From: Bacteroidota bacterium
GTDB taxonomy: Bacteria; Bacteroidota; Bacteroidia; 2-12-FULL-35-15
DNA length: 64,000 nt
Direction of reading: 5' to 3'
Assembly: GCA_040389865.1 (NCBI GenBank)
Contig: JAZJZM010000014.1
Location: 39,531 to 103,530 of the forward strand
Part shown: positions 5,886-52,646 of the stretch, piece after piece
Layout: every line of letters starts with the position of its first letter
Position numbering within the stretch: position 1 is the stretch's first letter
The notes under the pieces: generated by a model
Seen by the model: the letters and a program-made list of their open reading frames with translations, nothing else
The model's database searches: none
What the model was told of the DNA's origin: nothing
Position numbers and translations under genes: made by a program

Positions 5886-5943
5886 CCCCTCACCCCACCC
5901 TTCGGGCACCCCTCTCCAATTGGAGAGGGGAAGGGGGTGAGGT
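5886..5943. terminator. GC-rich nested inverted repeat downstream of the ABC gene (putative terminator)
   Basis: 'cctcacccc...cccctctccaattggagagggg...ggggtgagg' forms a nested perfect hairpin. No clean U-tract follows on the + strand. Confidence 0.4.
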
Positions 5944-6035
5944 AAAAAACAATCATTAGCCAATAAACGTAAAATGGGGATGAAAATTTATAATCTATGT
6001 AATCTATTTTAAAAATCTGTGTAATCATTTTTCAA

Positions 6036-8094: not shown

Positions 8095-8225
8095 AAGAAT
8101 TAGAGAAATAGAGAATTGGAGAGTTGGAGAATTGGAAAGGTTACAAAATCGAAAATTGAACTTTAAACAAAAGACTATATCTCTAATTCAATAAATCACT
8201 AAACTCCATTTCTCTATTTCACTAA
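8095..8225. repeat. imperfect palindromic array built from 'agagaattggagagttgg' units with an inverted partner
   Basis: Forward 'agaattagagaaatagagaattggagagttggagaattgg', then inverted 'tctctaattc...atttctctatttc...aatctctattt'. The same unit recurs at 61542-61600. Confidence 0.5.
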
Positions 8226-8242
8226 ATCTCTATTTTTTTATA

Positions 8243-10123: not shown

Positions 10124-10136
10124 CTGAAATTAGTCA

Positions 10137-10283
10137 ATGGTTGTTAGTTGTTAGTTGTTAGTTGTTAGCTGATGGTAGATGCCATTATCAATTGTCAATT
10201 GTTAATTGATTCCTTTTGATGGTTGTTAGTTGTTGTTACCTAAATGCCCAATTGCCTATTGCTTAATTGCCTACTGCTAAATT
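10137..10283. repeat. tandem 'gttgttagtt' x4 followed by 'caattg'/'aattgcct' word repeats
   Basis: 'gttgttagttgttagttgttagttgttagct', 'caattgtcaattgttaattg' and 'caattgcctattgcttaattgcctactg' read directly. The inverted counterpart 'caactaacaa' array is at 28022-28080. Confidence 0.7.
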
Positions 10284-10288
10284 GATCC

Positions 10289-13854: not shown

Positions 13855-14011
13855 TAGGCACAATTAAACAATTTTGCAATTTTTCAGTAGGCAATAAGGA
13901 TATGTTAAATTACATAATTGCCTACTGATTAATTGTAAAATTAAATAATTGCCTACTGAAAAATTGTTTTAAATTGCTCAATTAGGGTAAATAACCATAA
14001 ACACAGGTCAG

Positions 14012-20335: not shown

Positions 20336-20395
20336 CAAAACCCAACAAAAATGAATATTGATTTTATTCATTTTTGTTGGGTTTTTCTTTTTCTA
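20336..20395. terminator. strong bidirectional intrinsic terminator
   Basis: Perfect 19-bp stem 'aaacccaacaaaaatgaat / attcatttttgttgggttt' followed by 'ttctttttc'. Sits between convergent phaB and the ATP-grasp gene. Confidence 0.8.
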
Positions 20396-20435: not shown

Positions 20436-21914
20436 CTACAACATCTTAAAATCCCCGGCCTCCATCAAATCTTCTTCAGTTAATAATCCTGCATCAATAA
20501 TATCTGATTTGTATTGAGCACGTAAAGCTCTGATCCATCTTTTGCCACGGTCGGATAGCTTAAAATCATCGGACATCAAACGGCCTCTCATTACAAGAAT
20601 CCCCAGATCTGCACCTTCGTATAAATAGCCATCTTTTTGTGTGATCTGAAAAAAAAATGCTTCATTATCATCTACCACGGATTGACGGTGAGCATCCATC
20701 TTTTTGAATTTTATTTTTCCATTTTTTTTCATTTCCCAAATTCCGGATGATGGAGCTTCGGTAACAATTGCTAATGTTTTTTTTGTATGCTTAATTATCA
20801 GTTGACTCCAACTGTCATTATTTTCAGGTTGTGCCCAGCGGTCAGTTAATTCCTTTACATCTATTTCGTAAGGAACATCCATCCATTCCAATAAGTGAAA
20901 CAGAAAAAGAGGCACATCTTTCATTGCAAACAGTGCATGATTAGTTATGGAGCTTGCCCCTGAAATCCTTGGATTCAGCTCACCAAGATAAATTTCACCA
21001 TTATCCTGATCGATTAAAAAATCAAGTTCAAAATATCCTTTATATCCTTCCTTACGAAGCTGATCACCAAAAAGCTGAGTATATTTTGTTGCTTTTTCTC
21101 GTATGTCGGGAGTAAAGGCATTTGCATAAACCTCATTTCCGCACCAACCGCCTTTGTATGGGGTTAATTCTTTAAAACCTACCAATTCGGTCATTAAAGG
21201 AGCAACCAGGGTTCCGTGTTTTGTAACACATCCTTCAATAGCAGTTCCATAACAATTGATACGCTTCATTATTTTAACTTCTTTCTCCTTAATGATTTCT
21301 TCTTTGTGAAGATCGAATTCTTCTTCATTGGAAATAAAAAAAGTTGTATGTCCCGAATCACCAAATGGGGTTTGAACCACTAAATTTTCACCAAGCTTTT
21401 CAGAAATTTTACGTAATTGAGCATAATTTTCTAGTGAAGAAAGTACATAGGGAACACAAGCTACACCTGCCTTTTCAGCTATCCGGTTTGTATTTACTTT
21501 ATTGTCGAGAAAAGTTCTAAGCTTAGCGGAAGGAAAACATACATCAAGCCCCAATACTTTTGCAGCCTCTTCTGTTTTTTCATTGAACATCAAAAACAAA
21601 GCCTTCCCGGCTTTTCCATCCACACTTCTTGATTTTATAAAATCTTTTACTTCTGCATGTTGAAGTAAATAGTTATTTATATCCTCAATGCTTTGGAATT
21701 CTTCGTGAAGCATCTCTACTTTCGGAGAAAACAAATTAGGATGTAAGCCGTCAAAAGAATCGATATGACTGATGTATTTAAAATTATTTATCCATTCATC
21801 AATCCCTAATAAATTAAAGCTGGTAGCACTTATAAAGTAAATAGGTGTTTCATTAGATTTGAAAAACTGTTTTATTTCAGATAATCCTTTTAAAGTTTTT
21901 TGCTCTTTCATCAT
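20436..21914 (-). CDS. ATP-grasp-fold ligase of unknown specificity
   Basis: 492 aa. Central block 'GENLVVQTPFGDSGHTTFFI...' and 'GYFELDFLIDQDNGEIYLGELNPRISG' resemble ATP-grasp B/C subdomains. Lies downstream of and co-oriented with the decarboxylase. Confidence 0.55.
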   Translation of the reverse strand: MMKEQKTLKGLSEIKQFFKSNETPIYFISATSFNLLGIDEWINNFKYISHIDSFDGLHPNLFSPKVEMLHEEFQSIEDINNYLLQHAEVKDFIKSRSVDGKAGKALFLMFNEKTEEAAKVLGLDVCFPSAKLRTFLDNKVNTNRIAEKAGVACVPYVLSSLENYAQLRKISEKLGENLVVQTPFGDSGHTTFFISNEEEFDLHKEEIIKEKEVKIMKRINCYGTAIEGCVTKHGTLVAPLMTELVGFKELTPYKGGWCGNEVYANAFTPDIREKATKYTQLFGDQLRKEGYKGYFELDFLIDQDNGEIYLGELNPRISGASSITNHALFAMKDVPLFLFHLLEWMDVPYEIDVKELTDRWAQPENNDSWSQLIIKHTKKTLAIVTEAPSSGIWEMKKNGKIKFKKMDAHRQSVVDDNEAFFFQITQKDGYLYEGADLGILVMRGRLMSDDFKLSDRGKRWIRALRAQYKSDIIDAGLLTEEDLMEAGDFKML

Positions 21915-21920
21915 TTTGTA

Positions 21921-22036
21921 TTTAGATCTTGGATTTTAGATGTTGGACGTTAGATGTTGGACGTTAGATGCTGGATTTTAGATGGGTTTAAATGTGTGGC
22001 TCTAATATCTAAAATCCTATATCTAACATCTAACTA
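21921..22036. repeat. palindromic 'tagatgttgg' satellite between the decarboxylase and ATP-grasp genes
   Basis: Forward 'ttttagatgttggacgttagatgttggacgttagatgctggattttagatgg' and inverted 'ctaaaatcctatatctaacatctaac'. Confidence 0.7.
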
Positions 22037-24778
22037 CTATTTCTTAGCTTTAGCTTTACTCTCATTTAACTGCATCATCGCTCCCATTGCAGAAATTGTG
22101 TTTTTACGATTTAGCGCCTCTTCAGTAAATACTTTCAAACCAAGTTCAACACGGTAACCATGAATTTCCTTTACATCCAAAGCGATCATGAATCGGATAA
22201 TTTCTTCACTAACCACCTGCCCCGGCACTAATATTGGAAAGCCTGGTGGATATGGGATTACAAAGGAAGTAGAAACCAGCTCTCTTTTATTTGCTAACTC
22301 ATTTAAACATTGACTCAAGGGAACATAATCACACAATTCCTCTTCATACGCTAAAAAAAATGCTTCTCTGATATTACCACCCGGTACTCCTGGCGAAGCC
22401 TGAAATGAACGATGGAAATAGCTGAAATCAGGTAATGGCGGCACATCATTTATCAATGACAAAATCTGTTTTTGTGAAATTTCAGATTCCCTTTTATTTA
22501 ATGATCGGTTACTTTCATCCAATTCATCAGCAATTTGTAACAACGCATTTATCAAAAATGTAACACTGCCCCGTGTTGTACCAATATTGGTCATTAACAA
22601 AACAGTGTTGCGTGATGTTTTATTTACCTGGATATTGAAACGATCCATTAAGTAAGTATTCTTAAACGCATCCCCTGTTATTCCTGCCTTTCCAACTGAA
22701 AGGGTAATTTTTGTCGGATCCAATACAAACTCATCTTTCTCCCAGGATTCTTCCATCCGGGCCCATCCATCTTCAACAGTGTAATATTCGTTTGGTCCGC
22801 ATTCACGGTACTCCTCAGGTATAGTGTCTTTTACGGTAAGTATATGAAAGTACTTATTTAATTTAGGGTGGTTTTGTATCGTAGAACGCACGATCATTGC
22901 CATCTCAATACTTTTTTCAACCAATTCATATCCTTCCAATTCAACCTGTCTGCGCCCAGCATCCATTGATGCTAAGATCTGATAATTGGGTGAAGTGGTG
23001 GTATGTGTCATGTAAGATTCCTGAAAATTATCTGCAACCCTGCGGCTATACTCTTCATCCCAGATCTGTATCATCGATCCCTGGCGGAAACAAGAAAGTG
23101 TTTTATGTGTACTTTGTGTTGCATACACCCTGATCTTAACCTTTTCCGGATCAGGCATAGAAGGGATTTCATTGGGTTTTAACCCGGCAATATGTTCTTT
23201 GTATTTTGTTTTATACTCTTCGCTCCGGTATTTATGAAATAATTTTTGTGCCACATACATTCCTGTTCGTTGCTTGTAGGTGTATGTAAAACTTGCAAAT
23301 GCAAACCAGGCTTCATCCCATAAAAAAACCATATCGGGTTTAATGGCAAGCACTGTTTCCATTACCTTTTCAACATTATATACCAATCCATCGAAAGTAC
23401 AATTGGTAAGTAATAACATTTTCACTTTATCTAATCTGCCCGCTGTTTTTAACGCGATCAGTTTTTCTTTAATAACTCTCAATGGCACTGCGCCATACAT
23501 CGAATATTCTTCAATAGGATAAGAATCCAAATACGCGGGAAATGCGCCTGCTAAAACAAGTCCATAGTGATGCGACTTATGACAATCTCTATCTACGAGT
23601 ACTACATCACCCGGTTTTATTAATGCTTGTTGAACAATTTTATTTGCAGTAGATGTTCCGTTGGTAACAAAAAATGTATGCTCTGCTCCATAAGCTTTCG
23701 CTGCTTTTTCCTGAGCCTTTTTTAATGGACCTTTGGGTTGTAAAAGCGAATCAAGACCTCCATTGGTTGCCGATGTTTCTGCTAAAAAAACATTTCTCCC
23801 ATAAAACTCACCAAAATCAGCTATCCATCGCGATTTAAATACGGAGTTCCCTCTGGATATCGGCAATGCGTGAAACACGCTTGTCGGTTTTTTGGAGTAT
23901 TCTGTTAATGCAGTATAGAAAGGCGTTTCGAAGCGTTCATTGATTCCACTAATAATTGTTAAGTGAAGCTCCTGAACATCTTCCATCCGATAAAATATTC
24001 TTCTGAATGCCTTTTGTGTAGAATCTTTTAAATGAGTTAATGAAGTATCGGTGATATAATAAATATCTAATTCAGGTCGGAACTGATGGATATATTTCCC
24101 TAAAAGAGGCCCGATTTCAGCATCCGTTACATCCGACAGATCGATTTTTAAAACATTTTGAATAAATGGTTTTATAAGTTTGGTAATATTTGTTGAGGAA
24201 TGCAAAGGCGCATATCTAATACATGCGGCTTGTATGTTGTAATTAAAAAAAAGACATATTAAGGCATCCTGAAAAGAATGCTGCACCACCAGATCATACG
24301 TTAAGGAACTATTCGGATTAATCAGTTCCTTTATTTTATTTTTAAGAACCATCTCTTCATTAGCAGACATGTCTTCTACATAGAGTACTTCAAAATAATT
24401 TTTTTTAGAGCTGCTTGAATGTTTATCTTTTTTACTGTCGAGAGGAATGCCGGCATTATAATTTTCACCCAACATCTCCGGGTGAGTTCTATAATTATCG
24501 CTTACCAAAAGTTGAACTATTTCAGCAACCTGATTGCTAACGGCTTTTAATTCGCCCTTTTTAACAGATTTAATAATTCTCCTGACAAGGGTAGACCCCG
24601 GAAAAGAAAAATATTGCTCGATGCTTAATAAGTTTTGGAGAATTTCGTTCAATTCACTTAAACGTTCATCTAATAATGTTTCATTTGATTGAATACGGGT
24701 TATCAGATTACTTTTTTCTTTAAGCTCATTCCACAAATCAATTCTTAACTGATTTATATTGTAATGTTTTGAATTCAT
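22037..24778 (-). CDS. large-form Orn/Lys/Arg decarboxylase family (PLP, fold-I, OKR_DC_1) protein with N-terminal extension
   Basis: PLP-lysine block 'YATQSTHKTLSCFRQGS' and 'FFVTNGTSTANKIV' major-domain motifs. 913 aa against about 715-755 for AdiA/LdcC, with about 120 extra N-terminal coiled-coil residues. Confidence 0.8.
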   Translation of the reverse strand: MNSKHYNINQLRIDLWNELKEKSNLITRIQSNETLLDERLSELNEILQNLLSIEQYFSFPGSTLVRRIIKSVKKGELKAVSNQVAEIVQLLVSDNYRTHPEMLGENYNAGIPLDSKKDKHSSSSKKNYFEVLYVEDMSANEEMVLKNKIKELINPNSSLTYDLVVQHSFQDALICLFFNYNIQAACIRYAPLHSSTNITKLIKPFIQNVLKIDLSDVTDAEIGPLLGKYIHQFRPELDIYYITDTSLTHLKDSTQKAFRRIFYRMEDVQELHLTIISGINERFETPFYTALTEYSKKPTSVFHALPISRGNSVFKSRWIADFGEFYGRNVFLAETSATNGGLDSLLQPKGPLKKAQEKAAKAYGAEHTFFVTNGTSTANKIVQQALIKPGDVVLVDRDCHKSHHYGLVLAGAFPAYLDSYPIEEYSMYGAVPLRVIKEKLIALKTAGRLDKVKMLLLTNCTFDGLVYNVEKVMETVLAIKPDMVFLWDEAWFAFASFTYTYKQRTGMYVAQKLFHKYRSEEYKTKYKEHIAGLKPNEIPSMPDPEKVKIRVYATQSTHKTLSCFRQGSMIQIWDEEYSRRVADNFQESYMTHTTTSPNYQILASMDAGRRQVELEGYELVEKSIEMAMIVRSTIQNHPKLNKYFHILTVKDTIPEEYRECGPNEYYTVEDGWARMEESWEKDEFVLDPTKITLSVGKAGITGDAFKNTYLMDRFNIQVNKTSRNTVLLMTNIGTTRGSVTFLINALLQIADELDESNRSLNKRESEISQKQILSLINDVPPLPDFSYFHRSFQASPGVPGGNIREAFFLAYEEELCDYVPLSQCLNELANKRELVSTSFVIPYPPGFPILVPGQVVSEEIIRFMIALDVKEIHGYRVELGLKVFTEEALNRKNTISAMGAMMQLNESKAKAKK

Positions 24779-24792
24779 CTTTTTTGTATTGT

Positions 24793-24984
24793 GATGTTGG
24801 GGTATTAGATGTTGGATATTAGATGTTGGATATTAGATGTTGGATATTAGATGTTGGATGTTAGATGTTAGATGTTAGATGTTAGATGTTAGATATTGGA
24901 TGTTGGATGTTGGATGTTGGATATTTAATTCGGGTAAAGACACTTTTACAACCATAGCCTCCAACATCTAACATCCAACATCTA
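24793..24984. repeat. palindromic 'tagatgttgga' satellite array immediately upstream of the decarboxylase start
   Basis: About 13 tandem units 'attagatgttggat / gttagatgtta' over 24793-24925, then the inverted copy 'ccaacatctaacatccaacatcta' at 24961-24984. Confidence 0.75.
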
Positions 24985-24988
24985 TTCT

Positions 24989-25426
24989 TTAATGTTTCGA
25001 GTGAAGAGCCAACCTGTTTCCTTCTGAATCAATAAACAGGGCAAAATAACCAGCTGTATCGCTTAGGTAGCTCTTTTCCATCACTACCCTGCCGCCAGCT
25101 TCATTTACTTTCGATAATACGTTATTTAGATCAAATCCTCCATTTAAATAAATCAATGGACCAATTTCGCTCGGTACACAACCTTGTCCGGTCACTATTG
25201 CCCCTCCTATGCCGTTTTCGGCAGGAAAAAAGCCCATAGCAAATCCATTAAGTTCTACTGTTGTAATTTCGATCCCATAGATATAATTAAAAAAAGCAAC
25301 CGATCTGTAATGATTATAGGCCGGAATTTCAAACCAGGTCACAAAATCTTTGAATTCGGATTGTTCTTTCAATTTCAATAAATTGGCTTCTTTTATTTTT
25401 TCTTTTAAATTGACGGTGGATCCCAT
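24989..25426 (-). CDS. VOC/glyoxalase-family protein
   Basis: 145 aa, 'WFEIPAYNHYRSVAFFNYIYGIE' and a C-terminal 'GGRVVMEK...GYFALFIDSEGNRLAL' glyoxalase-like fold pattern. Confidence 0.65.
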   Translation of the reverse strand: MGSTVNLKEKIKEANLLKLKEQSEFKDFVTWFEIPAYNHYRSVAFFNYIYGIEITTVELNGFAMGFFPAENGIGGAIVTGQGCVPSEIGPLIYLNGGFDLNNVLSKVNEAGGRVVMEKSYLSDTAGYFALFIDSEGNRLALHSKH

Positions 25427-25776: not shown

Positions 25777-27984
25777 TTGGCAACAACACTCGAAAAACTA
25801 AAGACAAATTATTGGTTTCAATCTATTTTGAATAGCTATAGTTTGATGTTTTTTTCTTTAAATAATGTTCTTGCGGCTATTATTTTAATAGTGACTTTTT
25901 TTTCGCCTTATGTAGGATTGTCGGGCTTGGCAGCAATCGTTCTAATAAACCTATCTGCCTATTTTATAGGATTTAACAGGGATGAAATACTGAACGGACT
26001 TTTTGGTTTCAATGCCTTATTTCTTGGCCTTGCTTTGGGGTATGAGTTTTCATTTAACCTACCCTTTATAGCATTATTTATAACAGCGGTTTTGATCCTG
26101 CTTCTAATTACTGTATGGCTGAAAGGATTGTTTTCCCTATACAATTTGCCATTTTTATCCTTTCCATTCATTCTTACGTATTGGATCATTTCTTTAGCAG
26201 CCTCCAATCTTACAAATGTTTATTTAGATGAAGATCACATTTATATTGCAAATGAACTGATACTTAATCAATCCTCTTCATTTTATCAGTTCGTTCATTC
26301 TTTCGACAACATCAACGTTTTCCCGTTTATTCTTATTTACTTTAAAACGCTTGCAGGTACTTTTTTTCAAAGTAGTGTTTTAGGCGGTATGTTAATTGCA
26401 GCCGGATTACTTTACTTTTCACGTATTGCTTTTTCCCTGAGCCTCATAGGTTTTTCTTCTGCTTTTTTTTTCTATTCAATATTTGGTGCGGATGTAAATG
26501 ACTTAAATTATAATTTACTTGGATCCAACTTCATGTTTCTCGCAATTGCGATTGGTTGCTTTTTTCTAATTCCCAACACCTATAGTTATATAACCGTTCT
26601 TATTCTCACACCTATACTAATGTTGGTATTATTATCATTTGGTAAAATGTTGGCAGTTTTTCAACTCAAAGCCTTTACCTTTTCATTTAGTGTTATCTGC
26701 ACCGCTTTCCTCTTTACATTGAATCAACGATGGTTTCAAAAGTATTTACATGTTGTTACCATTCAGTATTTTTCAGCAGAAAAAACCATTTATAAATACC
26801 TGAATTCCATTCAGCGTTTCAAAAACGAACATCTTCTTAAGATCATACTTCCATTTTCCGGAGAATGGAATGTAAGCCAGGGCTATGATGGAAAAATAAC
26901 GCATTTAGGCGATTGGAGTAAAGCCTTGGATTTTGTGATCGTTGATTCCAAATCCAAAACCTATCATGAGCCATCCAACTACAGAGAAGGTTTTTCCACC
27001 GAAAATTTTTATTGCTATAATAAAGAGATCTTTTCTCCTTATGATGGTTATGTGTATGACATCATTAATACTGTTGAAGAAAATGATGTTGGGGAAGTGG
27101 ATACAGCGCATAACTGGGGAAATACTGTTATTCTGAATCATCTTAATGGATTGTTTTCACAAATAAGTCACATTAAAAAAGATTCATTTAATGTTTTTAT
27201 CGGACAATATATTTATAAGGGCTCATTTATTGCAACCTGCGGAAATTCGGGACGTTCGCCTGAACCGCATATCCATTTTCAATTGCAAACAATTCCCTCT
27301 ATTGGGGCAAAAACATTAGCCTACCCTATTTCATATTTTATTGAACGGGAAGGAAAAAAGAAAACGCTAAAAATTTCGGAGATCCCTAAAGAAGGCTCCT
27401 TCATAAGTAATGTGCAGGTAAATGAAATATTGATCTTAAGCTTTTCATTTTTACCGGGACATAAAATTACCTTTCAAAAGGAAAACACCGCTTCTACTAT
27501 CATCTGGGAAGTTTTTACAGATGCCTGGAACAGAACGTATATTTATTGCCAGGAAAGCAAATCATACGCTTACTTTATCAATGATGGTGTAATGTTATAT
27601 TTTACCGATTTTGAAGGGGATCGAAAATCATTGTTGTTTAATTTCTATCTGGCGGCTTACAGGCAGCTGCTTGGATATTATGAAAACATTAAAATAAAAG
27701 ACAATGTTCCTTTAATTCATTTCAATAGTAAATGGCTACAGTTTTTTCAGGATTTTGTTGCTCCTTTTTACCTGTTCACGAAAGCCAATTTCAGCTCCAC
27801 ATTTACGTATACTGATAATATTTATGCCCCGCAAAAATTAATTATTAATGCTGAAGTTGAAACTAAACTTATAAACTATACATTTAAAAAAATTAATTTT
27901 GAGTTTGAATTAAAGGACAATAAAATTCATCGTTTCACCATTCATGGTAAAAATAAAACCGAATCCTATATACTCAATCGATAA
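25777..27984 (+). CDS. polytopic membrane protein fused to an M23 (LytM) peptidase domain
   Basis: TTG start. Residues 1-330 form about 9-10 TM helices. M23 blocks 'HLGDWSKALDFV', 'DGYVYDI' and 'GNSGRSPEPHIHFQLQ', then about 230 further residues. Confidence 0.7.
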   Translation: MATTLEKLKTNYWFQSILNSYSLMFFSLNNVLAAIILIVTFFSPYVGLSGLAAIVLINLSAYFIGFNRDEILNGLFGFNALFLGLALGYEFSFNLPFIALFITAVLILLLITVWLKGLFSLYNLPFLSFPFILTYWIISLAASNLTNVYLDEDHIYIANELILNQSSSFYQFVHSFDNINVFPFILIYFKTLAGTFFQSSVLGGMLIAAGLLYFSRIAFSLSLIGFSSAFFFYSIFGADVNDLNYNLLGSNFMFLAIAIGCFFLIPNTYSYITVLILTPILMLVLLSFGKMLAVFQLKAFTFSFSVICTAFLFTLNQRWFQKYLHVVTIQYFSAEKTIYKYLNSIQRFKNEHLLKIILPFSGEWNVSQGYDGKITHLGDWSKALDFVIVDSKSKTYHEPSNYREGFSTENFYCYNKEIFSPYDGYVYDIINTVEENDVGEVDTAHNWGNTVILNHLNGLFSQISHIKKDSFNVFIGQYIYKGSFIATCGNSGRSPEPHIHFQLQTIPSIGAKTLAYPISYFIEREGKKKTLKISEIPKEGSFISNVQVNEILILSFSFLPGHKITFQKENTASTIIWEVFTDAWNRTYIYCQESKSYAYFINDGVMLYFTDFEGDRKSLLFNFYLAAYRQLLGYYENIKIKDNVPLIHFNSKWLQFFQDFVAPFYLFTKANFSSTFTYTDNIYAPQKLIINAEVETKLINYTFKKINFEFELKDNKIHRFTIHGKNKTESYILNR

Positions 27985-28080
27985 TGGATAATGGATATTG
28001 GATAATTGATAATGGACAATCACCTAACAACTAACAACCATCAACTAGCAACTAACAACCATCAACTAACAACCAAACTA
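27982..28080. repeat. 'ataatggata' and 'caactaacaa' tandem word repeats
   Basis: 'ataatggataatggatattggataattgataatggac' followed by 'cacctaacaactaacaaccatcaactagcaactaacaaccatcaactaacaacc', the reverse complement of the 10137 array. Confidence 0.7.
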
Positions 28081-28082
28081 AA

Positions 28083-35728: not shown

Positions 35729-35835
35729 ACTGTTTTGAAGAGACAGTTCATAAATTCATTTTGAAAACTGAACCACTCTGCACTAAATTGCAGAGGTTCA
35801 AAAAAAAAATAATGAAATTATTTTTAGCGATATTA

Positions 35836-35918
35836 AATCGAGAACGTCATTGCGAGGAACGAAGCAATCTCATATTATGCTTTGGTTGAGATTGCTTCGT
35901 TCCTCGCAATGACGGCAA
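35836..35918. repeat. perfect 27-bp-stem inverted repeat
   Basis: 'cgtcattgcgaggaacgaagcaatctc' + 16-nt loop + 'gagattgcttcgttcctcgcaatgacg', read directly. No U-tract follows. Confidence 0.75.
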
Positions 35919-36048
35919 CAAGTCAAATTTTGTAGAAACTGAATTCTTGCACTGAATGTGCATAGTTTTGAACTAACGAACTGAAACAATAAAACAATAC
36001 CATCCTACTATTTATTGCAAATAATAAATAATTCACAATCCAACCTTA

Positions 36049-47400: not shown

Positions 47401-50400
47401 TTCATTCGCTTCCGGCCATACTTTGTATTGATCATCTGAGTTGGTTCCATTGTAACTACCGGCAGCGGTTACAAGCATTGGGATATCATATTCGTAATAG
47501 TTATCGGTATAATCGGTACCTAAACGGATAAAAGTATGCAGATCGTTGTGATTCAAAATTTCAGCTGTATTGGCTGATGCTTCCGCATGAATATACATTA
47601 ATAATTTTTTGTATGAACGTACATCCAATTCCGTATTTTTAAAAGCAGCCCGAGCCTCTCCATCCTTTAGGTTGCACACTGTAAGTGACATCGCCTGTTC
47701 ATTTAAAGCAATTAAATTAGCTGATGCCGCATTTATTTCACGAGTGATATTTGGTGGTAAAACATAGTTTACCGGTTGTTTACTACCATCCACTTCAATA
47801 CTCACAGCCGAAACATCAAACTGAGTAATTGCCTCATCATTGGGAACATAAATACCGGGCTGCAATAGATCAAACCCATATTTCCGCCATTCGCCACGCA
47901 CCAACTCTAACCGTGCGAAACGCAAAATAATTGGTTTATCCACATTTTTATAGAACATACGAATAAAACGTATGGACTGGAAATTTTCAATTGACCCAAC
48001 CCTTTTTTCAGGTGTTTTAATTGGGATCCTGAATTGGTACCAGGTAATGGGTTTTGCAGTTCCGTCCTTAATGTTTTGCCCCGAAGTAGAGAACACATTT
48101 GTAATAAAATTAGTACCAACCCCTGAAGCAAAATCGCCTGGTTTTAAGCTGATATGATATTGGAAATAACTTTCCACTGTACTTAAGTTATTATCGCGGT
48201 TGATGTCCTCAACGTTGGGTGTTAAAGAAGCTGATGTAGGATAGCTTTCAGGCGATTGCTCTGTGGTACGGGAATTGTTTTCCATACCATTGAATTTTTT
48301 ATACCGCTCCACTGTTTTTACATTTGCCGCATCATAATCACTTCCCCTGAAATAATGAAAATCATCATTGGAAGGATCCGCACCGATTAAAGCAGCAGCA
48401 GCAGGTGTAACAACACCTGATAGGGAGCTTAAATAATTACCGAAAAAACTTTGTTCTGTAATACTTGTTGAAGCACCTACCCCATCTAAACCAACATCCT
48501 GAAAAGGGCGCTCAACGGGATCATTATTAAATGTATTTAAAAGTGGCTGTACAGCTGGCACAAGCCCCCAAGGCGTAGTAACAGTAGCGGCAGGGTTAAC
48601 GGTTGTTGGCAATCCATTTTCAGCACTTTTGTAGTTATCACGTAAAATATCTTCCGACACATTACCAATGTTAAAATACAATTCACCAGTTGTACTGGGT
48701 GCGGGATTATCAACATTAAAAGGATCCATAACCCAAAACTGGATGTATTCCACATTTGCAGTTTCAAAATCATTGGTTTGGATCGAGCGCATTATGCCTC
48801 CCCACCTTGTTTCCGGATCGTTCAAATTTCCATTTGCATCTAAACCTGCTGATATACCAGGGAGAGGAGCCACATCATAGTTATATGGTCCGCGCTCATT
48901 AGGGTAATAGGCCATATCTAAGGTTGCAATATTGGGTGGTATACCATTCGGAACCGGTTTGTTTGGAAAAACCTCCGTTTCAGGAACTTCACGGGCAAAG
49001 TTGTTCGACATGTCGGCATCTGTAATACCACCTGGCGTCAAACTTGTGGTTTGACGGAGAAACAAAGGATCAATAACATACCAGGCCAGCTTGGCGCGGT
49101 TGTATCCGTTAGGTAAGCTATCCGCCAGATTTCCTTCCGGGAACAAAGCCGTTTGTCCCTGAGGGGTACTTGCCAGTGTCCATGAGCTTTGTGAGCGCAG
49201 ATCTATGGTTGACTGGCTTCCTTCAAAATCATCAATGTATGAATTCCCCTTTTTACCAATTGCTTTACTGTGGCCCGGAATAAGGTATGCATATTCAGCG
49301 GCAGCAGTAATTGTACTCATTTCTTTGGTTTCAATAAAAGGAATTTTATCTACCCAACGTGTAAGGAAAGGGGCTTCCGTTCTATAATTACCATCTAACC
49401 CCACTATGGTATTTTTGATGGCCTCATCCCCAATGTTTACCTTTTGTGTCAATGGGCGTTCCGTTAAATTCATTACCGTCCCACCTATATTAAAATCTTT
49501 ATTAATTCTATAATCAAGGTGGGCAGCCATCAATGTTTTTTGCTGAATGGCAAATAGTGCATTACTCTCCAAAGCTATTTTAATAGGGGTTCCTGAGTTT
49601 AAAATACCATCATTAATAATTTTAACCCTTCCTAAGGTATAATCAACCGTATAATCAACGTTTTCGGTAAGCTTAACACCACCGGCAGTAACGGTTACAG
49701 AACCTTGCGGAACATTTGGCGCACCCAATGAAATATCGGAGCTGGAGGAGGATTGATACTGCCCTTTTAATTTGAAACGGTTCAATTGAGGGAATTGCTG
49801 GGCAACTATTCTTGTGGAATCGTATAACTGATCGAACACATAACTGTTTGCCACTGTACCGGGAGGAACAAATTTGGAACGTAAATAATCTCCAAATGGC
49901 TCTACAACTGGGAAGATCACACGTCCATTACTGGCATTGATCGTTACTCCATCAATAAAATCGAAAACACCATCCGCTATCTGGTCGGTCTGCTGATTGA
50001 GGCGATCCAAACTTAATACCTGGAGAAGGGTTCTTCCTTTGATAGCTGTTTCAGAAGCGGGAACCGGCAAATAATTAATATCGGTGCCGGTTTGCAAGTT
50101 ATTGTAAAGTACATTTAATTTAAAATCCTGCGGATTGATCTGATACGCACCAATGGAATATACGTTTTTCATCATCAAATTCCACATCGGATGTTTGGTA
50201 TTGGTTGCAGTACTTTTCAGCATCTTTGTATACAATGCTTTTGGGGCGCTTATCCCACCATCCGAAAACTCACCCACCTGGTAAACCTGCCCATTAATGG
50301 TATATTGGTAGGCCACAGAAAGTGCCTGATCGGGGTTTAATTGTTGATTTAAAGATACAAAACCCAATCTTGAATTTAAGGTGTATTCCGATGGCTGTAA

Positions 50401-51750
50401 TTTCCTTGCAGAAGCAGTTAATTCGTAGTTTATTGTTTGTTTAAGGGTGTTCCCCGAAAGCGTATTAAGTTTAGAAACAGTAGTATTGATGGTTCTTACA
50501 ACCGAGTCCCCCGAAAGGTTGCCATACAAATTATTTTGTCCGTTAAAAGGCAAAATTCCCGGATCGATATCACTCAGGTAGGTTTGATTAGCAGGAATAT
50601 GAGCAGCATCTTCGGCTAATTCAGAAAAAGAAACAATGCTTCGGATATCATTGGTTGAATTATTAGTATTGGAGATCCAAACTTCAATACGATTAATATT
50701 TACTTCCGAATTAACAAAAGGTAAACCTGACAAAGCGGTATTAAAATGATCACGAAAATAATGCGCTAAAAAAAAGTGTTTATTGGATTCATAAGCATCG
50801 CCTGCTACTTCAAACTTACTGATCTGGGCGCCACCGGTAACTTCCACCTCTGATTTCTTACCTTTTTGCTGTGAAAGTAAACCTGTAACAGTTAAGCGGC
50901 CAAACTGAAGCTGAGTTTTAACACCAAACAGTGTTTGGCTGCCGGTAATCAAAGATCCGTTCAAAGGCATGCTTACATTCCCTGCTTCAATTTTTTTAAT
51001 GATATCATCTTCCTCACCGGTGTATGCTAATTTCATTTGATTTTCAAAATCAAACATTGCTTCGGTGTTATAGGCCGTGGTTAACGTTAACTTAGTTCCA
51101 ATTTTACCTATTACATTCAACTGGATCCGTTCATTAAAATCGAATGTATTTACTTTCCGGTTCCTTTCCGGGATAGCAGGGTTTTCTGTTTTGGTTCCGT
51201 TATAGGCAAATATTAATTCGGCCGAACCGTTGGGGCGGATATCAACCGTATTACCACCAAATATCCGATCAAAAATTTCTCCCCCTACATTTAATTTAGG
51301 GATAGTAGGTTTACTCTGATTGTTTTGAGTTTCGGCATCTGAACGGGCATTCCAATAGTTTTTTACCTGTTTTTTAAACATGTAATCCTGATATTCCTCG
51401 CTCTCCATGTATGTAGGAGGGCGATAATTAGCACCACCTATTTTTTGGCCAATATTATAATTTCCCGTAGTGGGGTCATATTCAACATCTGTTGTAACGT
51501 TGGAAGGATTGTTTAGCATCAATCCACCTGAATTGGGATAATTCAAGGGGTCTCCGGTTGATTGATCCTGAAAACTATAAGGAAGAACAACAGGGGTTTG
51601 AGGAGTATCAACAACAAAGAGAGGTTGCTTCGCGTCAATAATAGCCGCGTGATTAAAGGAACTAACCTTTGCATCAGTGCCTACAATGAGCGACAGCAAT
51701 CCAATAGAAAGCCCTCCTATACCTATATATTTAGTTACGGTTTTTGTCAA
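44497..51750 (-). CDS. sprA: T9SS/gliding-motility cell-surface translocon protein SprA
   Basis: 2417-aa beta-rich giant ORF with an N-terminal signal/TM. Conserved ruvA-sprA synteny of Bacteroidota. Confidence 0.85.
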   Translation of the reverse strand: MTKTVTKYIGIGGLSIGLLSLIVGTDAKVSSFNHAAIIDAKQPLFVVDTPQTPVVLPYSFQDQSTGDPLNYPNSGGLMLNNPSNVTTDVEYDPTTGNYNIGQKIGGANYRPPTYMESEEYQDYMFKKQVKNYWNARSDAETQNNQSKPTIPKLNVGGEIFDRIFGGNTVDIRPNGSAELIFAYNGTKTENPAIPERNRKVNTFDFNERIQLNVIGKIGTKLTLTTAYNTEAMFDFENQMKLAYTGEEDDIIKKIEAGNVSMPLNGSLITGSQTLFGVKTQLQFGRLTVTGLLSQQKGKKSEVEVTGGAQISKFEVAGDAYESNKHFFLAHYFRDHFNTALSGLPFVNSEVNINRIEVWISNTNNSTNDIRSIVSFSELAEDAAHIPANQTYLSDIDPGILPFNGQNNLYGNLSGDSVVRTINTTVSKLNTLSGNTLKQTINYELTASARKLQPSEYTLNSRLGFVSLNQQLNPDQALSVAYQYTINGQVYQVGEFSDGGISAPKALYTKMLKSTATNTKHPMWNLMMKNVYSIGAYQINPQDFKLNVLYNNLQTGTDINYLPVPASETAIKGRTLLQVLSLDRLNQQTDQIADGVFDFIDGVTINASNGRVIFPVVEPFGDYLRSKFVPPGTVANSYVFDQLYDSTRIVAQQFPQLNRFKLKGQYQSSSSSDISLGAPNVPQGSVTVTAGGVKLTENVDYTVDYTLGRVKIINDGILNSGTPIKIALESNALFAIQQKTLMAAHLDYRINKDFNIGGTVMNLTERPLTQKVNIGDEAIKNTIVGLDGNYRTEAPFLTRWVDKIPFIETKEMSTITAAAEYAYLIPGHSKAIGKKGNSYIDDFEGSQSTIDLRSQSSWTLASTPQGQTALFPEGNLADSLPNGYNRAKLAWYVIDPLFLRQTTSLTPGGITDADMSNNFAREVPETEVFPNKPVPNGIPPNIATLDMAYYPNERGPYNYDVAPLPGISAGLDANGNLNDPETRWGGIMRSIQTNDFETANVEYIQFWVMDPFNVDNPAPSTTGELYFNIGNVSEDILRDNYKSAENGLPTTVNPAATVTTPWGLVPAVQPLLNTFNNDPVERPFQDVGLDGVGASTSITEQSFFGNYLSSLSGVVTPAAAALIGADPSNDDFHYFRGSDYDAANVKTVERYKKFNGMENNSRTTEQSPESYPTSASLTPNVEDINRDNNLSTVESYFQYHISLKPGDFASGVGTNFITNVFSTSGQNIKDGTAKPITWYQFRIPIKTPEKRVGSIENFQSIRFIRMFYKNVDKPIILRFARLELVRGEWRKYGFDLLQPGIYVPNDEAITQFDVSAVSIEVDGSKQPVNYVLPPNITREINAASANLIALNEQAMSLTVCNLKDGEARAAFKNTELDVRSYKKLLMYIHAEASANTAEILNHNDLHTFIRLGTDYTDNYYEYDIPMLVTAAGSYNGTNSDDQYKVWPEANEMVLEFGKLSSAKQQRNLAVGNTSISEYTVMDGNRKITVKGNPNLSAIKTIMIGIRNPKKEGIDGGDDGLSKCAQVWVNELRLSDFDESGGGAATARVTAKLADFGTLSLSGNYYAPGFGSLENKVSERKRATLKQYDITSSFELGKFLPDDFKIHVPMYVGYSESYITPQYNPLDPDILLAPVLKDPTIPAAIRDSVKLATQDYTQRKSINFTNVKKEKGKGAKKSHIYDIENWAASYSFNQLYKRNVNLEYDSTRNYKAGLIYSFAPSPKNIRPFAKTKIVQAKSLLLIKDINFYLFPNKLGFSTDVERGYNTAKTRNTTEGEMLIIPTFNKRFTMNRSYDLKYDITKALKLDFVATNEARILEPQGAIDTQEKKDTLRDNFLGLGKTTQYNQQLNVNYAIPINKLPLLDFTTASVRYTGTYNWTRAPFNFDSLGNTIQNSRVIQFTGALNMVTLYNKIPYFKKINQGANKKTNKKVVVPPIKTKINPTPKDSTKKEREPSIALEYVARIIMSLKNVNITYSMNNGTILPGYSHFTNMMGMDPNFAGPTPGFIFGDQRDIRDDAVKNDWLVKTPSINTPYTRTSSDNLNIRANIEPIPNLKIEVTAVKTTSLNESEFFRWRVNDTLEDGSIGDRFKHQSAMQTGNFSMSFLAFGTSFKDGDSTFSRFLNGRSEISTRLGAENDSSFSTINGYAEGYNETSQDVLIPAFVAAYSGKNPITVGLNAFPTLPKPNWRITYDGLSKIESIKKYFKSITLSHAYRSTYNVSSYTSNLLFTDPDNDGYTGRKEAVSSIPTNRNFLAKDLINTITVSEQWSPLIKVDVTLNNSVLVNFEYKKDRNLSLGLTSKTITEVGGREIVIGTGYRLKDLSLGKRLQIKGKPIKSDLNMKVDLSFRKNETIIRRIVEEVSQSTGGTNIISIKVSADYVINERINIRLFYDRIINKPVVSNSFPTTNTNAGISLRLTLSN

Positions 51751-52502: not shown

Positions 52503-52528
52503 TTTTTCATTTAATTAATATATTTAGA

Positions 52529-52646
52529 GTCAGGATTTAAGAATCAAGACGCAAGATGTTGTTCGTGTACTAAATTCATTTGTCTTAACTCTTGATTCTT
52601 AGATCTTGGTTCTTAGATCTTGGTTCTTAAATCTTAACTCTAACAT
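52529..52646. repeat. palindromic satellite built on 'tcttggttcttaga' units
   Basis: 'ttaagaatcaagac...gtcttaactcttgattcttagatcttggttcttagatcttggttcttaaatcttaactc'. Confidence 0.6.

Follow-up and report, generated by a model that had tools for sequence, protein, structure and literature searches.

The 64,000-nucleotide stretch of contig JAZJZM010000014.1 analyzed here (the window; all positions are counted from its first letter) contains a minus-strand gene for an Orn/Lys/Arg-type decarboxylase that is flanked on both sides by tandem heptanucleotide arrays with inverted partners. Such arrays, often present as inverted pairs that form hairpins, occupy co-directional spacers in an uncultured lineage of freshwater Bacteroidota. 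Their turnover between sister species is complete, and the two arms of a pair co-vary from species to species. On balance, it seems probable that the arrays are slippage-driven heptanucleotide simple sequence repeat (SSR) hairpins, a genome-wide class of spacer element that is tolerated in one orientation and at most tunes operon expression. A role as an on/off switch dedicated to the decarboxylase is improbable.

The first array (array A) lies in a 210-nt gap (gap A, 24779–24988) between the stop codon of the co-directional open reading frame (ORF) ORF145 and the decarboxylase start. An earlier note, made from the sequence alone, had placed it in a 5′ leader, which this position contradicts. 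On the mRNA strand, the gap reads UAA, 4 nt, a G-rich arm UAGAUGUUGGAUGUUAGAUGUUGGA, a loop, array A, the A-rich segment CACAAUACAAAAAAG, and AUG. The UAGAUGUUGGAUGUUAGAUGUUGGA arm (24960–24984, minus strand) forms the 5′ side of hairpin A and consists of 3.5 G-rich heptads over 25 nt. A unique 34-nt loop or spacer follows (24926–24959, minus strand). Array A itself (24793–24925, minus strand) forms the 3′ side, with 17 uninterrupted, in-register AUCYAAY heptads plus two degenerate ones, more than the "about 13" units counted earlier; the sole variation among the 17 is C or U at two positions. The array contains 43 C and no G in 133 nt and ends 14 nt upstream of the start codon. The remaining translation-initiation region (24779–24792, minus strand) comprises CACAAUACAAAAAAG, with A at −3, −6, and −12, and is predicted to be unpaired. 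Tandem Repeats Finder (TRF) describes 24793–24922 either as period 14 with 9.2 copies (93% matches, score 181) or as period 7 with 16.9 copies. Perfect tracts reach 38 nt at period 7 and 57 nt at period 14, a signature of recent tandem expansion. The UAGAUGUUGGAUGUUAGAUGUUGGA arm is up to 96% complementary to the array at a distance of 34–35 nt, which agrees with the inverted copy that the earlier note had placed about 35 nt away.

The second array (array B) repeats this layout at a smaller scale. Gap B (21915–22036, 122 nt) separates the decarboxylase stop codon (22037–22039) from the start codon of an ATP-grasp gene (21912–21914), and it is filled almost wholly by array, loop, and partner, as originally described. 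The 5′ arm of hairpin B (22001–22034, minus strand) begins 2 nt past the decarboxylase stop and is composed of the G/U-rich heptads UUAGAUG, UUAGAUA, and UAGGAUU. After the loop (21985–22000, minus strand), array B (21921–21984, minus strand) supplies the 3′ arm as 4.6 copies of a 14-nt double heptad, C-rich on the mRNA strand (TRF period 14, score 86). It ends 6 nt upstream of the ATP-grasp start, and its 3′ terminal 35 nt or so are unpaired. Sequence inspection, TRF, and motif counts all place both pairs on either side of the decarboxylase gene. When up to one mismatch is allowed, the motif TAGATGTTRGA has 22 matches in the window, where 2.5 would be expected (none of 100 shuffles reached 22), and all 22 fall in these two gaps.

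Both gaps are predicted to fold into stable hairpins on the mRNA strand, for which the earlier note had proposed a folding check. The predicted energy of gap A is −43.9 kcal/mol, compared with −22.4 ± 3.6 for shuffled sequences (z −6.0), and that of gap B is −28.3 kcal/mol (z −7.05). Thus, the proposed stem-loop at array A is upheld in its stability, but not as a "very long" structure. Its stem spans 25 bp, limited by the short partner arm, and about 100 nt of the array are predicted to stay single-stranded. In the folding ensemble, the G-rich arm has an unpaired probability near 0, i.e., it is always paired, and its three AUGs all lie within the stem. The pairing register slides along array A, with about 25 nt paired at once and each heptad paired in 20–70% of the ensemble, and the final 35 nt or so before the start codon are mostly open.

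The genetic context shapes how these structures are to be understood. ORF145 (24989–25426, minus strand), which has no Pfam or NCBIfam match, is the first gene of a conserved three-gene unit. It is followed by the decarboxylase (22037–24778, minus strand; 913 aa; OKR_DC_1, E 5e-79), in which an N-terminal extension of about 280 aa precedes the OKR_DC_1 domain, and by the ATP-grasp gene (20436–21914, minus strand). The 492-aa product of the latter matches the NCBIfam equivalog PRK06524, "biotin carboxylase", scoring 739.6 bits where the cut-off is 684. Among species-representative genomes, a scan yielded 72 orthologous loci, all in uncultured Bacteroidota metagenome-assembled genomes (MAGs), many from freshwater, groundwater, or ice; genes in the cross-genome surveys are naive ORF calls. 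The order ORF145–decarboxylase–ATP-grasp is kept in about 70 of the 72. Many of these units carry no arrays and have their genes 1–20 nt apart or overlapping, for example, with gaps of 6 and 3 nt in locus L017, 2 and 2 nt in L041 and L029, and 17 and 1 nt in L043–45. Because the unit is conserved in about 70 species, often with such narrow spacing, the arrays appear to be intercistronic insertions rather than part of a promoter-proximal leader. The three genes would then constitute an operon, and the compact arrangement is probably ancestral.

A canonical bidirectional intrinsic terminator (20338–20384) with a 20-bp stem and T-rich tails on both strands stands just past the ATP-grasp stop codon and marks the probable end of the transcription unit. 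Hairpins A and B were also considered as intrinsic terminators and rejected. Their stems are AU-rich and are followed by a C/A-rich array with no U-tract, and the terminator scan finds none in either gap. The Bacteroidota promoter consensus TTTG-N17-23-TAnnTTTG matches 8 times in the window against 7.2 expected and never in the gaps, a scan that can neither place nor exclude a promoter. A sigma-70 promoter scan remained at or below shuffle level. Across the whole window, curated Rfam covariance models give no match at gathering thresholds, and a tRNA scan found none.

Comparison with close relatives reveals how quickly the arrays are replaced. The closest relatives share 98–99% amino-acid but only 91–94% nucleotide identity, and the latter range identifies them as sister species. 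In gap A, the UAGAUGUUGGA family of the window persists at different copy numbers in L054, L003, and L058. A UAGAUGUGAGA variant, with joint changes in its two arms, is present in L002, L005, and L064. Another hairpin, AAUUUGAAAAU...AUUUUCAAAUU, occupies the gap in L004, L001, L006, L056, L016, L019, L020, and L049, in some cases with cargo in its loop, and yet another palindrome is found in L021, L022, and L024. The Fam2 hairpin arm of sister species, ACATTTTCAAATTAA, is not present in the window. In gap B, L002 and L072 keep the hairpin of the window with an array that differs by whole units (one additional 14-mer in L002), whereas L001 and L004 hold an unrelated palindromic element of about 240 nt. 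The gap between a urea transporter gene and a tetratricopeptide repeat (TPR) gene elsewhere in the window shows 5 versus 3 TAATGGA units in the comparison with L073. Repeat-number differences are thus observed between species, in whole 7- or 14-nt units. Exact look-ups of the ORF145, decarboxylase, and ATP-grasp proteins led to nothing beyond the same sample (SRR26324623) and the L004 species, and the decarboxylase itself is not on record. Since sister species carry different elements in each of the two gaps, the notion of a "bracket" specific to the decarboxylase was rejected.

The joint change of both arms gives modest support for pairing. An RNAalifold consensus of five gap-A hairpins contains 22 pairs, five of them with changes on both sides. 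Consensus pairing holds in 87.6% of cells, whereas column shuffles give 82.3% (the observed value is reached in 6 of 500), and the covariation score is 0.227 against 0.153 (reached by 8 of 500). When the registers are slid, pairing collapses to 26–53%.

Arrays of the same class are not restricted to the decarboxylase. At least five other spacers of the window contain arrays based on 7- or 8-nt units (8096, 10140, 27976/28024, 52590, and 61542). Between an M13 peptidase and an aminotransferase gene, five copies of the G-rich 8-nt unit AGAATTGG (8096–8136, plus strand) begin 8 nt past the peptidase stop, and a C/U-rich 3′ partner arm (8180–8235, plus strand) abuts the aminotransferase start. Four CUAACAA units on the mRNA strand (10140–10168, minus strand), in the gap after a major facilitator superfamily (MFS) transporter gene, lie 16 nt upstream of the start of a CoA-binding protein. 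The urea-transporter/TPR gap (27976–28073, plus strand) holds (AAUGGAU) × 6, which straddles and follows the transporter stop, and then (CUAACAA/CCAUCAA) × 7, which ends 9 nt before the TPR start; this region barely folds on the sense strand. Past the malic-enzyme stop and before the ruvA start (52524–52635, minus strand), a purine-rich 14-nt array (52590–52635) faces a pyrimidine-rich partner (52524–52556). Lastly, seven copies of the G-rich unit AGUUGGAG (61542–61598, plus strand) begin at the last stop-codon base of a 76-aa ORF, upstream of an S41 peptidase gene, and their partner arm is degenerate. The flanking genes are unrelated, housekeeping in nature, and display no functional pattern. 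Among the gaps of the window and the 72 loci, arrays with a period of 7, 8, or a multiple thereof (TRF score of at least 50) occur in 23 of 177 co-directional, 1 of 78 divergent, and none of 30 convergent gaps, counts that are only partly independent as the loci are copies of one region.

The class also extends beyond the lineage. In metagenome contigs, the CATCYAACATCYAACATCYAACATC or (CATCYAA)n array appears in at least 120 stretches, mostly on contigs of 55–65% GC from unrelated organisms. A layout of stop codon, array, and start codon recurs in contigs L094, L101, and L153, and a G-rich partner arm stands beside (CATCYAA)n in L078 and L120. AT-rich (CATCYAA)n arrays in high-GC contigs (58–69%) often fill the stop-to-start spacer exactly (L094:1153-1180(-), L101:2957-2991, L120:5212-5232, and L078:2970-3060(-)). 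The recurrence of this one heptad in different phyla could reflect either convergence or transfer. The earlier note had set a regulatory switch against the picture of identical arrays scattered at random with a constant copy number. The same arrays are indeed widely scattered, but their copy number does vary, by whole units between relatives. With at least five other array-bearing spacers in the window, array-free orthologous units, and other repeat units or palindromes in sister species, the proposal of a switch specific to this locus is not supported.

A consistent polarity accompanies this distribution. The sense strand is rich in C and poor in G, with a GC skew of −0.65 to −1.0, in all 14 start-proximal arrays, defined as those within about 20 nt of a downstream start codon. 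Stop-proximal arrays, within about 12 nt of the upstream stop, show a sense-strand skew of 0 to +1. In this lineage, a G-rich arm directly follows the upstream stop codon. The arm that abuts the downstream start is C/A-rich, contains neither G nor AUG, and is in most cases the longer of the two. The polarity is the same for genes on either strand of the window, which indicates that it tracks transcription and not the replication strand. A sense-strand wobble test, in which G-U enrichment was expected as a sign of sense RNA structure, did not bear out that expectation. Sense RNA is less structured than antisense RNA in 16 of 19 array-bearing gaps, and the antisense strand folds better because G/U-rich arrays pair with themselves. 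Re-read in this light, the test offers evidence that the orientation may minimize mRNA structure, as judged from the folding models.

The start regions point in the same direction. G accounts for 4–5% of the 40 nt before starts with arrays, 10–12% before starts without arrays, and 19% of coding sequence. An abundance of A and a shortage of G in these 40 nt characterize the whole genome, and the arrays exaggerate the shortage. In gap A, a G-free run of 151 nt ends 1 nt before the AUG, and the final 100 nt contain no AUG, compared with eight if array A were inverted. Ribosome profiling in F. johnsoniae (PMC6847099) has described Bacteroidetes initiation regions as having no Shine-Dalgarno sequence and low structure, with A at −3, −6, −12, and −13 and a depletion of additional AUGs. 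The start region of gap A matches these initiation rules. Taken together, the composition suggests that only the C/A-rich orientation is tolerated or favored next to a start codon.

A mechanism can be proposed that accommodates these observations. Arrays would arise and grow by slipped-strand mispairing, and the complementarity of the arms may persist either because pairing is selected for or through hairpin-templated correction. The one orientation that fits initiation without a Shine-Dalgarno sequence, at a start region that is unstructured, A-rich, G-poor, and AUG-poor, would be the only one to survive. The arrays would be transcribed within the operon mRNA, where the duplex of about 25 bp just past the upstream cistron is a plausible determinant for RNase III or a 3′-exonuclease. 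The single-stranded C/A tract of about 100 nt could act as a ribosome landing region for the decarboxylase, with de novo initiation replacing a lost translational coupling. A change in repeat number would then cause, at most, a quantitative tuning of relative expression.

Several points weigh against this reading. Its functional steps are all ones that we infer from sequence. The polarity sample derives from one 64-kb window and 72 copies of one region, which amounts to about six independent start-proximal arrays (sign test, p ~0.03). A universal polarity of (CATCYAA)n was considered and rejected, with about 11 sense and 9 antisense cases among the unrelated metagenome contigs listed. The covariation signal comes from five sequences, is modest, and could stem from templated concerted evolution with no selection involved. 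Moreover, the hairpin is not universal, given that class arrays at 27985–28082 and 10124–10288 form no convincing hairpin on the sense strand. Finally, the copy number of array A rests on one assembly, and an independent short-read assembly breaks within the array.

That break introduces the first of the competing explanations, namely, that the arrays are an artefact of metagenome assembly in which a repeat was collapsed or made chimeric. In its favor, Logan contigs built from short reads of the same sample (SRR26324623) end inside array A from both sides. The independent assembly nevertheless reproduces exactly all of gap B and array A at its two edges, and homologous arrays occupy the same positions in several independently assembled sister species. 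The uncertainty is limited to the exact copy number of array A, and an artefact is scarcely credible. A side effect of the break is visible in one of these contigs (L196:1-1378), where the decarboxylase is called as 931 aa instead of the true 913 aa because the contig starts inside array A, which lacks an in-frame stop for 54 nt.

A more substantial alternative treats the arrays as a regulatory SSR of the type known from hmw1A of H. influenzae. Here, the hairpin would be cleaved by RNase III, and repeat-number changes within a population would shift the expression of the decarboxylase, and also of the ATP-grasp protein, as a phase-variable or tuning switch under selection at this locus. The architecture matches that of the hmw1A 5′ untranslated region (5′-UTR), with a heptad SSR, a G-rich arm, surplus repeats that do not alter the hairpin, and RNase III cleavage in the known case. 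A nearly perfect 25-bp stem at z −6 and perfect tracts of 38 and 57 nt, which should be prone to slippage, fit the idea, as do the unit-number differences between species and the assembly break inside array A. However, such a break is expected for any repeat that exceeds the assembler k-mer, and the documented copy-number differences are those between species. The arrays are generic, stand beside many unrelated housekeeping genes, and are absent from the same operon in many species, with unrelated palindromes in their place in sister species. Neither array lies in the promoter or primary 5′-UTR of a surface or contingency gene of the kind typical of phase variation; both are intercistronic in a conserved metabolic three-gene unit. 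We therefore regard this switch as unlikely, though not negligible. The opposite extreme would be DNA that is selfish or purely neutral and affects neither RNA nor expression. In that case, slippage-prone repeats and quasi-palindromes would build up in any spacer that tolerates them, and the polarity would reflect only a transcription-linked mutational strand asymmetry. Other facts favor this view. Turnover is complete between species at 91–94% nucleotide identity, many relatives possess compact, repeat-free gaps, the same gaps are colonized by unrelated palindromic elements and even a gene cassette, and unrelated genomes widely contain the motif in both orientations without bias. Against this, the polarity follows gene direction on both strands and fits the depletion of G and AUG known as initiation constraints, more than it does a simple skew. 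The arrays are nearly absent from divergent and convergent gaps (1 of 108, compared with 23 of 177 co-directional gaps), and an insert of 100–200 nt between once-adjacent cistrons would hardly be neutral for expression. Strict neutrality thus appears unlikely as well.

Two further proposals concern the composition and the mobility of the elements. A tract that is C-rich, G-free, and unpaired has the composition of a classical rut site. Array A, with the base content given above and mostly unpaired, could accordingly be read as a Rho-dependent attenuator within the operon, in which a C-rich, G-free, unstructured tract of about 130 nt would end decarboxylase transcription when ribosomes fail to load. 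The tract ends 14 nt before a start codon in a good A-rich context, where initiating ribosomes would normally cover it, and other genes are preceded by much shorter arrays of the class (28–55 nt). We consider this reading improbable. Mobilization by a transposase, as for a repetitive extragenic palindromic (REP) element, its REPIN form, or a MITE (a transposable element of the miniature inverted-repeat type), is also quite improbable. The elements are palindromic, intergenic, dispersed, and of several families, and the same gaps elsewhere hold GC-rich palindromes that are clearly MITE-like. Yet hairpins A and B share no conserved core or loop (their loops are unrelated), and no terminal inverted repeats or target-site duplications were seen by eye, with no formal scan made. 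No RAYT or other transposase occurs among the window proteins scanned, most window ORFs lying outside that scan. The arms consist of variable numbers of tandem units, and homologous arrays evolve in place by unit insertions and deletions. A many-copy consensus, as in REP or REPIN families, is missing; within the 64 kb, only two gaps contain the motif, and other gaps carry different units.

Returning to slippage-driven hairpins that at most tune expression, a bolder version can be formulated, though we hold it to be doubtful. In it, heptad-repeat hairpins would be a self-renewing, evolvable module that sets expression ratios within operons of Bacteroidota that initiate with no Shine-Dalgarno sequence. 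The G-rich arm, with its AUGs hidden, would form the duplex that closes the upstream cistron as an RNase III substrate or exonuclease barrier. The expandable G-free, AUG-free C/A tract would serve as a standby landing platform, and its length would determine de novo initiation at the cistron that follows. Selection could maintain the complementarity of the arms, as could a mechanism dependent on transcription and RNase III, as reported for hmw1A.

The loops of the spacer hairpins deserve separate attention. In the gap-A equivalent of L001 (L001:3566-4000), a 115-aa gene of the 23S rRNA intervening-sequence (IVS) protein family (PF05635, E 9e-22) sits between the arms of a AATTTGAAAAT...ATTTTCAAATT hairpin. 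The 3′ remnants of this gene occur in the same loop at L004:3870-4000 and in the upstream gap of L056, and a remnant is also present at L073:4439-4569. With an IVS-protein ORF enclosed by its loop, the L001 hairpin is similar to the intervening sequences of rRNA, except that it is located in an mRNA spacer. GC-rich hairpins (e.g., GCCACGGAGGCTGAGCGAAGTCGAAGCC...GGCTTCGGCTCCGCTCAGCCTCCGTGGCG) are likewise nested in the loop of the AT-rich TTTGAAAAT gap-A hairpin at L016:334-496, L020:1105-1348, and L019:3777-4000. These cases suggest that spacer-hairpin loops are preferred insertion sites for other palindromic elements. More speculatively, the loops might be integration sites for cassettes, with the IVS-protein gene in L001 and the GC-rich palindromes in L016, L019, and L020 as examples. 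If true, loop integration would link mRNA spacers to rRNA intervening sequences.

Other repeats fill further spacers of the window. A GC-rich palindrome family, CCCTGACAGGGTTTCAAACCCTGTTAGGG and variants, is found at 40778–40896 and 39959–40099 in neighboring co-directional spacers, together with an 82-nt direct repeat (39915–40076). One copy forms a near-perfect stem of about 30 bp (−56.8 kcal/mol over 119 nt). These palindromes look REP- or MITE-like and are unrelated to the heptad arrays. Strong palindromes are also present at 35729–36048, 43867–43971, 5886–6035, and 13855–14011; they include GAACGTCATTGCGAGGAACGAAGCAATCTC with its complement (stem of about 30 bp) and a AATTGCCTACTG-based hairpin whose unit is shared with a 15-nt array at 10250–10284. 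Since the window also holds several unrelated GC-rich palindromic fillers, spacer colonization by hairpin-forming repeats of several families, in which it is unusually rich, is a general trait of this genome. Two neighboring genes are unusual in themselves. The ORF at 25777–27984 (735 aa) combines a urea-transporter domain (PF03253, residues 15–314) with a peptidase M23 domain (417–504), an unusual fusion that is kept in sister species L073–L075. In addition, a very large ORF of 2417 aa extends over 44497–51750 on the minus strand.

As regulators of this particular decarboxylase, the arrays matter little, given that they are generic spacer repeats. Their broader relevance lies elsewhere. The polarity offers a natural-variation readout of what Bacteroidota ribosomes that work with no Shine-Dalgarno sequence tolerate upstream of starts, and the arrays suggest a simple route by which formerly translationally coupled cistrons could be uncoupled and re-tuned. 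On the practical side, short-read assemblies of such MAGs are interrupted at these arrays, and gene callers can be misled by them.

Several known systems share features with these elements. Short tandemly repeated repetitive (STRR) sequences of cyanobacteria also consist of heptanucleotides in tandem and are scattered through the intergenic regions of one particular lineage. The comparison covers unit length and intergenic location; the phylum and the unit sequences differ. Enterobacterial operons contain REP-type 3′ stabilizers, and in other operons intercistronic stem-loops direct the selective processing and stabilization of RNA (SRPS; PMC4423207, PMC8219983). As in both, the hairpins described here are stable stem-loops directly past the stop codon of the upstream cistron within a putative operon, have no U-tract, and are placed where they could set differential mRNA stability. 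SRPS stem-loops, however, are not built from tandem repeats and are conserved with their genes, whereas the present hairpins are SSR-built, AU-rich, and rapidly replaced. Unlike these hairpins, REPs share a genome-wide consensus and an association with RAYT.

The (ATCTTTC)n repeats of H. influenzae hmw1A/hmw2A form a phase-variable 5′-UTR hairpin that is processed by RNase III (PMC12721329), an experimental precedent for control of expression by a heptad SSR paired to a G-rich arm. In both systems, a heptad SSR and a G-rich partner make up a long hairpin upstream of a start codon (with transcription and pairing predicted for the arrays of the window), surplus repeats leave the hairpin unchanged, and the repeat strand is pyrimidine-rich. 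The order of the arms is reversed, as the hmw1A SSR is the 5′ arm and its G-rich partner the 3′ arm. Furthermore, hmw1A concerns the promoter-proximal 5′-UTR of a surface adhesin with documented within-host copy-number change, whereas the arrays described here are intercistronic, generic, located in a metabolic operon, and known from sequence alone.

The closest counterpart is the set of intergenic heptamer direct repeats (TAACTGA and related units) that MacGregor (2015; PMC4679880) described, oriented forward toward start codons, in Beggiatoaceae, Cyanobacteria, and some Bacteroidetes. In the account given there, these repeats fall within the broader category that Mrazek et al. (2007) termed "long simple sequence repeats", and the summary in the same paper includes a proposed slipped-strand origin for heptanucleotide long SSRs. 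Mixed heptamer assemblages were reported in Gramella, Aequorivita, and Elizabethkingia and were absent from the shorter gaps of close relatives. Insertions and deletions between close strains occurred in 7-nt steps, flanking genes were unrelated and often housekeeping, and no intrinsic secondary structure was predicted for TAACTGA repeats (PMC4679880). The arrays of the window likewise consist of 7-nt units (5–11 nt in the class) joined head to tail over lengths well beyond chance, are almost always intergenic, and lie forward and a few nt before starts; they change length unit by unit, have repeat-free relatives, and exhibit no pattern among flanking genes, so that every class feature that could be tested here was found. 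By these sequence features, arrays A and B belong to the known class of intergenic heptanucleotide long SSRs. They differ from the MacGregor heptamers in their units (ATCYAAY, CTAACAA, AGTTGGAG, and others, versus TAACTGA), in that many arrays possess an inverted G-rich partner and form a 20–30 bp hairpin with G-rich 5′ and C-rich 3′ polarity in co-directional spacers, and in their host, an uncultured freshwater Bacteroidota lineage not covered in PMC4679880. What is new relative to the published class is thus the unit sequences, the lineage, the frequent inverted G-rich partner, and the explicit polarity.

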